A DNA stretch of 41,053 bases from positions 1-41,053 of the IMG/VR virus record IMGVR_UViG_2617270962_000012; one strand, 5' to 3'. The DNA is from a virus. Taxonomy: Duplodnaviria > Heunggongvirae > Uroviricota > Caudoviricetes. The notes beneath the pieces were generated by a model. That model did not search any database, had not been told where the DNA came from, and saw only the letters and a program-made list of their open reading frames with translations. A program made the translations under genes and the position numbers. Positions 7,481 through 8,297 of the stretch are shown one piece after another (the first letter of the stretch is position 1; every line of letters starts with the position of its first letter).

Positions 7481-7971
7481 TCATGAGTCTGTTAAATGAC
7501 GTTCAGAAATTCATTGAAGCCCATCCGGGGTGTACTTCCGGAGACATTGCGGATGCTTTTGCAGGTTACTCACGGCAGCGCGTTCTGCAGTCTGCAAGCA
7601 AGTTACGTCAGAGTGGGCGTGTGGCTCACCGTTGTGAAGGAGATACACGCAGACATTTCCCGCGCCTGACTGAGAGAGCGCAGGAACCGGAACCACAACC
7701 AGTTCGAGAAACCAGACCTGTGCGCAATTTCTATGTCGGCACTAACGATCCACGGGTGATTTTGTGCCTGACCCGCCAGGCTGAAGAACTGGAGTCCAGG
7801 GGCTTATACCGTCGTGCTGCAACCGTGTGGATGGCGGCATTCCGTGAAAGCCACTCCCAGCCAGAACGAAACAATTTTCTGGCGCGTCGTGAGCTGTGTT
7901 TACGGAAAAGCAGCAAGCGCGCTGTATCGAGTGATGAGTGGTATCTGTCAGGGAATTACGTGGGGGCGTAA
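7477..7971 (+). CDS. PerC-family transcriptional regulator-like protein
   Basis: C-terminal 'AEELESRGLYRRAATVWMAAFRES...ERNNFLARRELCL' resembles the PerC/Pch core as I recall it; N-terminal extension of unknown function. Confidence 0.45.
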   Translation: MIMSLLNDVQKFIEAHPGCTSGDIADAFAGYSRQRVLQSASKLRQSGRVAHRCEGDTRRHFPRLTERAQEPEPQPVRETRPVRNFYVGTNDPRVILCLTRQAEELESRGLYRRAATVWMAAFRESHSQPERNNFLARRELCLRKSSKRAVSSDEWYLSGNYVGA

Positions 7972-8297
7972 TGACGACGTTAACTCAATGCCAGCAGCAG
8001 GTGCTGGATATGCTGATTTCTTATCAGAAAGAGCGTGGCTTTCCGCCAACCAATCAGGAGGTGGCAACCATGCTGGGATACCGTTCAGTGAATGCAGCGG
8101 TAGAGCATCTTCGCGCACTGGAGAAAAAAGGCGTCATCACGATAAAGCGTGGCGTGGCCCGGGGGATAACGCTTCATACCGCGGTGAAGGACGACGACAG
8201 CGAGGCGGTCGGGATTATCCGCGCACTGCTTGCCGGTGAGGAAAACGCAAGGCTGCGTGCAACCCACTGGTTACATGAGAGGGGCCTGAAAGTATGA
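7971..8297 (+). CDS. LexA N-terminal DNA-binding-domain-only protein
   Basis: 'MTTLTQCQQQVLDMLISYQKERGFPPTNQEVATMLGYRSVNAAVEHLRALEKKGVITI' matches the LexA winged-HTH pattern; no S24 peptidase domain; start overlaps the previous stop (taATG). Confidence 0.55.
   Translation: MTTLTQCQQQVLDMLISYQKERGFPPTNQEVATMLGYRSVNAAVEHLRALEKKGVITIKRGVARGITLHTAVKDDDSEAVGIIRALLAGEENARLRATHWLHERGLKV

Follow-up and report, generated by a model that had tools for sequence, protein, structure and literature searches.

LexN, a short LexA-type DNA-binding protein of an e14/SfII/mEp460-like temperate phage that lacks the autopeptidase half and may read SOS-box-like operators

LexA of Escherichia coli contacts its operator through residues S39, N41, A42, E44 and E45 of helix 3 (PMC3091678), and its DNA-binding domain has a described phage counterpart in Bacillus phage GIL01, whose gp6, a truncated LexA homologue of 66 amino acids, recognises GaCACAnnTGTGaC, a palindrome that overlaps the -35 element of the late promoter P3, and acts as an activator of this promoter (PMC6182141). 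Here we analyse a gene in the virus record IMGVR_UViG_2617270962_000012 (Caudoviricetes), the 41,053-nucleotide genome of an e14/SfII/mEp460-like temperate phage, which in its full length we refer to as the window. The gene, at 7971-8297 on the + strand, is given the working name LexN. We find that it encodes a LexA-type winged helix to which a conserved helical hairpin has been joined in place of the autopeptidase half, and we tentatively propose that the protein acts on LexA-type operators during lytic growth.

The LexN product is identical to WP_000210156.1, a 'LexA family transcriptional regulator', and its DNA is 100% identical in annotated RefSeq genomes. Pfam LexA_DNA_bind (PF01726) covers residues 1-65 with all 65 of its profile positions (E 2.9e-19, 69 bits at a cut-off of 23.7 bits), and the Pfam search returned no match to Peptidase_S24 (PF00717) in LexN, which ends at residue 108. 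The NCBIfam lexA equivalog model TIGR00498 aligns only over positions 1-91 of its 203 and scores 70.5 bits, below its cut-off of 110.95 bits, while a phmmer search of PDB sequences with LexN returned LexA entries only, among them the E. coli LexA DNA-binding domain (1lea, E 6e-16). An AlphaFold2 model (mean predicted local distance difference test score, pLDDT, of 79) places helices at 6-22, 28-35 and 40-52 and strands at 56-58 and 66-68, and 67 of its residues superpose on DNA-bound E. coli LexA (3jso) at 0.9 A, 51% of them identical (Foldseek); across residues 1-69, 35 of the 69 positions are identical to E. coli LexA. LexN is therefore a LexA-type winged helix without the autopeptidase half, just as an earlier sequence-only reading of this DNA had claimed. 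It is not a LexA, because the defining S24 domain is missing and not all contact residues are retained, and lacking the S24 half it has no RecA-stimulated self-cleavage by the LexA mechanism, so that the further claim of that reading, that activated RecA could not bring about its cleavage, also stands.

A feature that the sequence-only reading did not cover is the conserved C-terminal hairpin. Beyond a low-confidence linker at residues 69-76, which is disordered in the AlphaFold2 model, LexN carries a helical module of about 40 residues where LexA has its S24 domain. The hydrophobic pattern of the hairpin (I82, I83, L86, L87, A93, A97, W100 and L101) is kept in close homologues, and a similar pattern is found in relatives of 40-50% identity, which also keep the length and architecture of the whole protein. 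Judging from the model, we presume that the hairpin is a likely substitute for the lost dimerisation domain or else a module that binds a partner. In informative homologue pairs the ratio of nonsynonymous to synonymous substitution rates (dN/dS) of the winged-helix part is 0.10-0.36, which places this part under purifying selection, and LexN is a real gene maintained by such selection.

With respect to DNA recognition, LexN keeps four of the five LexA contact residues in the alignment (S39, N41, A42 and E45) and has Val at position 44, so the complete set is not present. As far as the residues themselves can tell, the recognition surface is still largely LexA-like and favours an SOS-box-like operator, since these four positions are kept whereas gp6 has K, T, H and R; binding of LexN to SOS boxes is plausible on this comparison. 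An SOS-box pattern search of the window gave three matches against 0.54 expected. When half-sites were counted across the whole window and compared with Markov-chain simulated sequences, CTGT half-sites at other spacings from 0 to 16, as well as CTAT, CTTT and CTCT half-sites, all occurred at chance, and only the canonical CTGT spacing of N8 stood out (3 observed versus about 0.5 expected). No operator-like inverted repeat was found between 7400 and 11900, and half-site and inverted-repeat scans gave no candidate palindrome near the putative late promoter downstream of Q (at about 11297-11330, read by eye).

Two of the three matches are perfect CTGT-N8-ACAG boxes, at 38405-38424 and 38433-38452, directly upstream of a DinI-family gene, which bears out the earlier claim of a LexA-box-controlled DinI-like gene. 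They are certain host-LexA-type sites, and for LexN they are candidate targets only. The distal box ends one base before the stop codon of the integrase gene (int, 38453-39550, - strand), and the dinI promoter region thus directly adjoins the 3' end of int. The third match, which is near-consensus, falls within a gene for an N6/N4 DNA methyltransferase in the late region 3' of Q. Homologues about 80% identical in protein sequence still carry this box, with a different spacer and different encoded residues, and the arms CTGT and ACAG (or CCAG) are retained in loci L140, L144, L146-L148, L150, L097 and L138; the pattern of sequence conservation suggests selection on the box itself. Co-variation between LexN subfamilies and the methyltransferase box was also considered and set aside as uninformative, the Cronobacter-type CTGT-N8-CCAG being an ordinary SOS-box variant.

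Further SOS boxes are present in related phages. In five loci (L007, L016, L026, L039 and L040) the box TACTGTATTTATGAACAGTG lies 117 nucleotides 5' of a KilA-N variant (67% identical), within an intergenic insert between rusA and this variant and about 764 nucleotides downstream of the start of the LexN-type gene. From this arrangement the variant looks like a LexA-controlled, antirepressor-type gene downstream of the LexN-type gene and rusA. A consensus box, TACTGTTTTTA[CT]ATACAGTA, is found in alternative immunity modules (L004 at 5540, L011 at 4642 and about 27 other loci), 570 nucleotides 5' of a CII-like gene, in LexN-type phages without the S24 CI of the window; its position suggests that such phages may be induced via a LexA-controlled gene and not by self-cleavage of a repressor. 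SOS boxes therefore recur in this phage group, a circumstantial observation in that they were counted among LexN-bearing phages only.

The genetic context of LexN bears on when it would be made. LexN overlaps both of its neighbours, its ATG being interlocked with the upstream TAA (TAATG) and its TGA with the ATG of the RusA gene (ATGA), and most genes of this rightward early operon likewise overlap or abut. A search of the + strand from 5300 to 8684 returned no sigma-70-like site. Because LexN is embedded in a CI-repressed early operon without a promoter-like site of its own, we infer that it is probably a delayed-early lytic gene, silent in the lysogen and expressed only after induction or infection. 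The sequence-only reading was right to describe the CI-like repressor as S24-type, as an S24 domain is present in it. Its proposal that LexN competes non-inducibly for SOS boxes is nevertheless unlikely to hold in the lysogen, given this operon context, and a role after induction, with host LexA already cleaved, is possible instead.

LexN is by no means restricted to this prophage. Of 5,426 complete E. coli genomes, 2,233 (41%) carry the 327-bp gene at an identity of at least 95%, with up to four copies per genome, and it also occurs in 51 phage records, among them mEp460, SfII and Stx2a- and Stx2c-converting phages. It has been named 'LexA DNA binding domain protein' (mEp460, SfII), 'LexA-like protein', 'repressor, lexA family' (Stx2a_1447) and 'LexA family transcriptional regulator'. 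LexN belongs to an already annotated family of short phage proteins, PHROG 362 ('transcriptional repressor'), residues 1-108 aligning with profile positions 1-106 of 106 (E 1.2e-59), and it has the features of that family: a length of about 105-112 residues, a winged helix with a C-terminal hairpin, and an early-operon slot between a replication gene and rusA. The names given to PHROG 362 members rest on domain-based annotation, and full-text literature searches found no experimental or target study of the enterobacterial LexN family. Among 1.84 billion representative proteins searched, relatives with the full architecture are 104-135 residues long and 40-50% identical, and all those with a named source come from Enterobacteriaceae (Cronobacter, Kosakonia, Enterobacter, Cedecea, Klebsiella, Salmonella, Citrobacter and Hafnia). 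Given this frequency and its existing annotation, LexN is no unusual feature of this prophage.

The gene order around LexN is common to 152 related IMG/VR loci and to annotated records. Across the 152 loci a DNA methyltransferase gene and YfdN appear as optional insertions 5' of the LexN-type gene, and rusA begins at +306 to +331 nucleotides in most of them, even where LexN identity is only 45-50%; about 17 have an insertion between the LexN-type gene and rusA, and a few are without a RusA match. YfdN is missing in L143 and L151, and there the LexN-type gene directly follows the O-like gene. In the E. coli K-12 prophage CPS-53 (L001, NC_000913 2472112-2472881), where yfdN lies directly 5' of the truncated methyltransferase gene yfdM, no LexN remnant was found, and K-12 therefore lacks the LexN family. 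Elsewhere a LexN of 99-100% identity is accompanied by repressors, O-like genes (30%, 66% or 98% identity) and Q genes that differ from one phage to another. That LexN stays constant while the immunity, replication and Q modules around it change speaks for a target independent of the module, for instance host-type SOS boxes.

Taken together these observations lead us to favour, at a probability of roughly 0.4, a mechanism in which a LexN dimer binds an SOS-box-related palindrome and so regulates LexA-type operators independently of RecA in lytic growth. LexN would derive from a proteobacterial LexA, of which it kept the N-terminal domain and lost the S24 autopeptidase and dimerisation domain, having a two-helix hairpin instead. 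It would be transcribed only from the CI-controlled rightward early promoter and would thus be present after induction or infection. The hairpin would enable dimerisation and hence palindrome binding, and the operator would be the SOS box CTGT-N8-ACAG or a sequence close to it, proposed because S39, N41, A42 and E45 leave the recognition surface LexA-like. In favour of such a role for the hairpin, an isolated LexA DNA-binding domain represses poorly, and repression is restored by fusion to a heterologous dimerisation module (LexA-zipper). Once host LexA has been destroyed, LexN would re-occupy LexA-type operators, because RecA cannot inactivate it. Its targets would be the phage dinI, in relatives the LexA-controlled KilA-N/antirepressor gene, and possibly host SOS genes; repression is the simplest mode, by which LexN would shut SOS-controlled genes off in lytic development.

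Several points weigh against this mechanism. SOS boxes are common in temperate enterobacterial phages generally. Dimerisation of LexN, and with it the geometry of a dimer, is presumed. Glu is found at position 44 in only one of 67 relatives of the same architecture, the others having V, A, T, F, L or Y, and it is present in most of the CTGT-type LexA proteins retrieved (10 of 14 full-length ones). Moreover, within the recognition helix the LexN subfamilies are unlike one another at positions 40 and 44-46. Enterobacteriaceae hosts, to which all relatives of named source belong, share the CTGT-N8-ACAG box, and such variation is unexpected if every subfamily must read it. The alignment also shows that Arg28 of LexA is not retained in LexN. 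Changes in the N-terminal part of helix 3 are known to alter direct readout (PMC4951493), and gp6, which is about 44% identical to its host LexA, has a new specificity and an activator role (PMC6182141).

Some of these points feed the main alternative, that LexN has moved off the SOS box to a distinct phage or host palindrome, perhaps as an activator and possibly together with the PerC-like YfdN. We regard this as possible, though we would sooner doubt it than adopt it. The rarity of Glu44 and the divergence of positions 44-46 between subfamilies speak for it, gp6 at P3 offers a precedent, LexN usually comes coupled with a gene for a PerC-family, activator-like protein, and stand-alone LexA DNA-binding-domain proteins are frequent in unrelated phages (BFVD), which suggests general reuse of the fold. 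Yet no alternative palindrome is enriched in the window and the search of 7400-11900 found no operator-like inverted repeat, no phage-specific site evidently co-varies with an unchanged LexN beside varied immunity, replication and Q modules, and the recognition residues of LexN are far closer to those of LexA than are those of gp6; a partnership with YfdN is further at odds with the loci that lack it. Another alternative is an architectural or accessory role in the replication-recombination block. LexN would then be no transcription regulator but a helper of the O-like initiator or of RusA that might, for instance, bend or mark the DNA of the origin or of junctions. The near-constant slot between the O-like gene and rusA, the overlap of the LexN-type stop with the rusA start in most of the 152 loci, the direct succession to the O-like gene in the two loci without YfdN and a weak match to the replication-initiator O-like PHROG phrog_678 (E 0.0086) are all consistent with such a role, which we nevertheless hold to be improbable: the adjoining O-like gene is exchangeable while LexN stays identical, the LexA base-contact residues are kept apart from Glu44 and point to sequence-specific reading, the synteny may reflect only a co-inherited block, and rusA occurs without a LexN-type gene in other lambdoid phages.

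An effect exerted on proteins, with the linker and its pseudo cleavage site or the hairpin binding host LexA, RecA filaments or S24 repressors and thereby modulating SOS induction or CI cleavage, was suggested by an HMMER alignment that runs through the cleavage-site region. In it LexN 71-90 is paired with LexA 67-86, A88-G89 stands opposite A84-G85, and LLAGEE is aligned to VAAGEP, which LexA cleaves between Ala84 and Gly85; LexN itself has no active site that could receive this segment in cis. However, the LLAGEE segment is predicted to be helical and its AGE motif is not kept in the wider family. Cleavage in trans by S24 domains is inefficient, and the features that are conserved are those of a DNA-reading winged helix, which makes this explanation very improbable. 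Least credible of all is that LexN is what is left of a captured lexA gene, now decaying and without function. The protein is indeed truncated, databases contain many variants with frameshifts or fusions, and the gene is missing from the degraded CPS-53 of K-12, but the low dN/dS, the length and architecture kept across genera at 40-50% identity, the 2,233 genomes that carry it nearly unchanged and its retention in viable phages leave hardly any room for such a view. The PADLOC defence-system models gave only a marginal winged-helix match, which was rejected as well.

Should LexN bind SOS boxes as we favour, about 40% of sequenced E. coli strains, including lysogens of Stx2 phages, would be able to re-impose LexA-type repression independently of RecA. 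After antibiotic or DNA-damage stress this would influence the duration of SOS functions (mutagenesis, filamentation, toxin and colicin genes, the induction of co-resident prophages), and also the timing of Shiga-toxin phage development. A stronger version, in which LexN is a RecA-proof stand-in for LexA that re-occupies SOS boxes genome-wide after lytic commitment, when host LexA has been cleaved, strikes us as unlikely. If true, it would silence the phage's own dinI and LexA-controlled antirepressors and host SOS functions too, and it would act as a weapon in prophage competition, since the LexA-controlled antirepressors, colicins and toxins carried by rival resident elements would be silenced as well; a phage-imposed SOS shut-off would then exist in about 40% of E. 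coli strains. If instead the specificity has shifted, LexN would be an uncharacterised delayed-early regulator in a large group of lambdoid phages and a second, independent case, after GIL01 gp6, of a phage reusing the LexA DNA-binding domain.

The features of the window discussed here are collected in the table. YfdN, whose N-terminal region is winged-helix-like with weak MarR-like matches, stands between the O-like gene and LexN, so that 6539-8297 holds three consecutive genes with winged-helix-type products. Within the KilA-N gene we observed a 58-bp imperfect palindrome (8837-8894) with 27-nucleotide arms that are 70% complementary and a 4-nucleotide loop. A 64-codon open reading frame (11514-11708, + strand; MLKQQDMTETAKVVFNELSIEPTTAGEIAQNTYLSRERCQLILTQLVMAGLADYQFVCYRRLQQ) lies between a terminator-like hairpin 3' of Q and the methyltransferase gene, and an IS110-family transposase gene (DEDD_Tnp_IS110 and Transposase_20; 36598-37794, - strand) is situated between the tail-fibre region and the dinI-like gene.

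Table. Positions in the window of LexN, its parts, neighbouring genes and SOS boxes
Feature	Position	Strand	Basis or remark
CI-like repressor with S24 domain	4628-5302	-	Domain search
CII-like gene	5625-6194	+	Rightward early operon; followed by small open reading frames, then the O-like gene
O-like replication gene (HTH_36)	6539-7480	+	Rightward early operon
YfdN	7477..7971	+	PF06069 PerC, E 1.1e-9 (C-terminal); PHROG 1324; synteny; stop overlaps LexN start
LexN, 108-residue stand-alone LexA-type DNA-binding protein	7971..8297	+	Open reading frame, PF01726, PHROG 362, annotated RefSeq DNA
LexN winged helix-turn-helix, residues 1-69	7971..8177	+	AlphaFold2, Foldseek to 3jso
LexN recognition helix region, residues 39-52	8085..8126	+	LexN SVNAAVEHLRALEK versus LexA SPNAAEEHLKALAR; alignments
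LexN C-terminal helical hairpin, residues 76-103	8196..8279	+	AlphaFold2: helices 76-87 and 93-103
RusA, Holliday-junction resolvase	8294..8683	+	PF05866, E 4.5e-15; start overlaps LexN stop
KilA-N	8703-9500	+	Rightward early operon
DUF968	9508-10497	+	Rightward early operon
Q	10469-11263	+	Rightward early operon
DNA methyltransferase gene	11858-12910	+	N6/N4 type
SOS box TACTGTAAAAATAAACAGTG	11866..11885	+	Pattern search; codons 3-9 of methyltransferase gene; candidate target
DinI-family gene	38143-38391	-	DinI Pfam match
Two SOS boxes TACTGTGTTTGTATACAGTA, AACTGTATGGATAAACAGTG	38405..38452	-	Pattern search; 5' of DinI-like gene

Compared with known systems, LexN resembles E. coli LexA (1lea, 1jhh, 3jso) in its N-terminal winged helix and in S39, N41, A42 and E45. 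It differs in having neither the S24 domain nor the Ser119/Lys156 catalytic pair, in Val44, in the 40-residue hairpin that replaces the C-terminal domain, and in being encoded by a phage within an early lytic operon, with no autoregulating SOS boxes 5' of its own gene. With GIL01 gp6 it shares a phage-encoded, early-expressed LexA DNA-binding domain without the protease half, and hhalign relates the two at a probability of 96.8% (33% identity over 64 columns). However, gp6 consists of the winged helix only, whereas LexN has the extra hairpin, and at the positions aligned to LexA 41, 42, 44 and 45 gp6 has K, T, H and R where LexN has N, A, V and E; the gp6 recognition residue Lys38 aligns with Asn41 of LexN, so that a close relationship extending to this residue is not seen. 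Because BLASTP finds no pairwise alignment between LexN and gp6, we read them, on sequence comparison, as independent truncations in enterobacterial and Firmicute phage lineages. The LexA-zipper fusions offer another parallel, in that they too join a LexA DNA-binding domain through a short linker to a small helical module, an arrangement proposed here for LexN; they differ in keeping the wild-type recognition helix and in being known binders of SOS operators, while for LexN both dimerisation and operator are put forward from sequence and model. With PHROG 362 and WP_000210156.1, finally, LexN shows no difference, these being the same family with DNA 97-100% identical and the same gene order.

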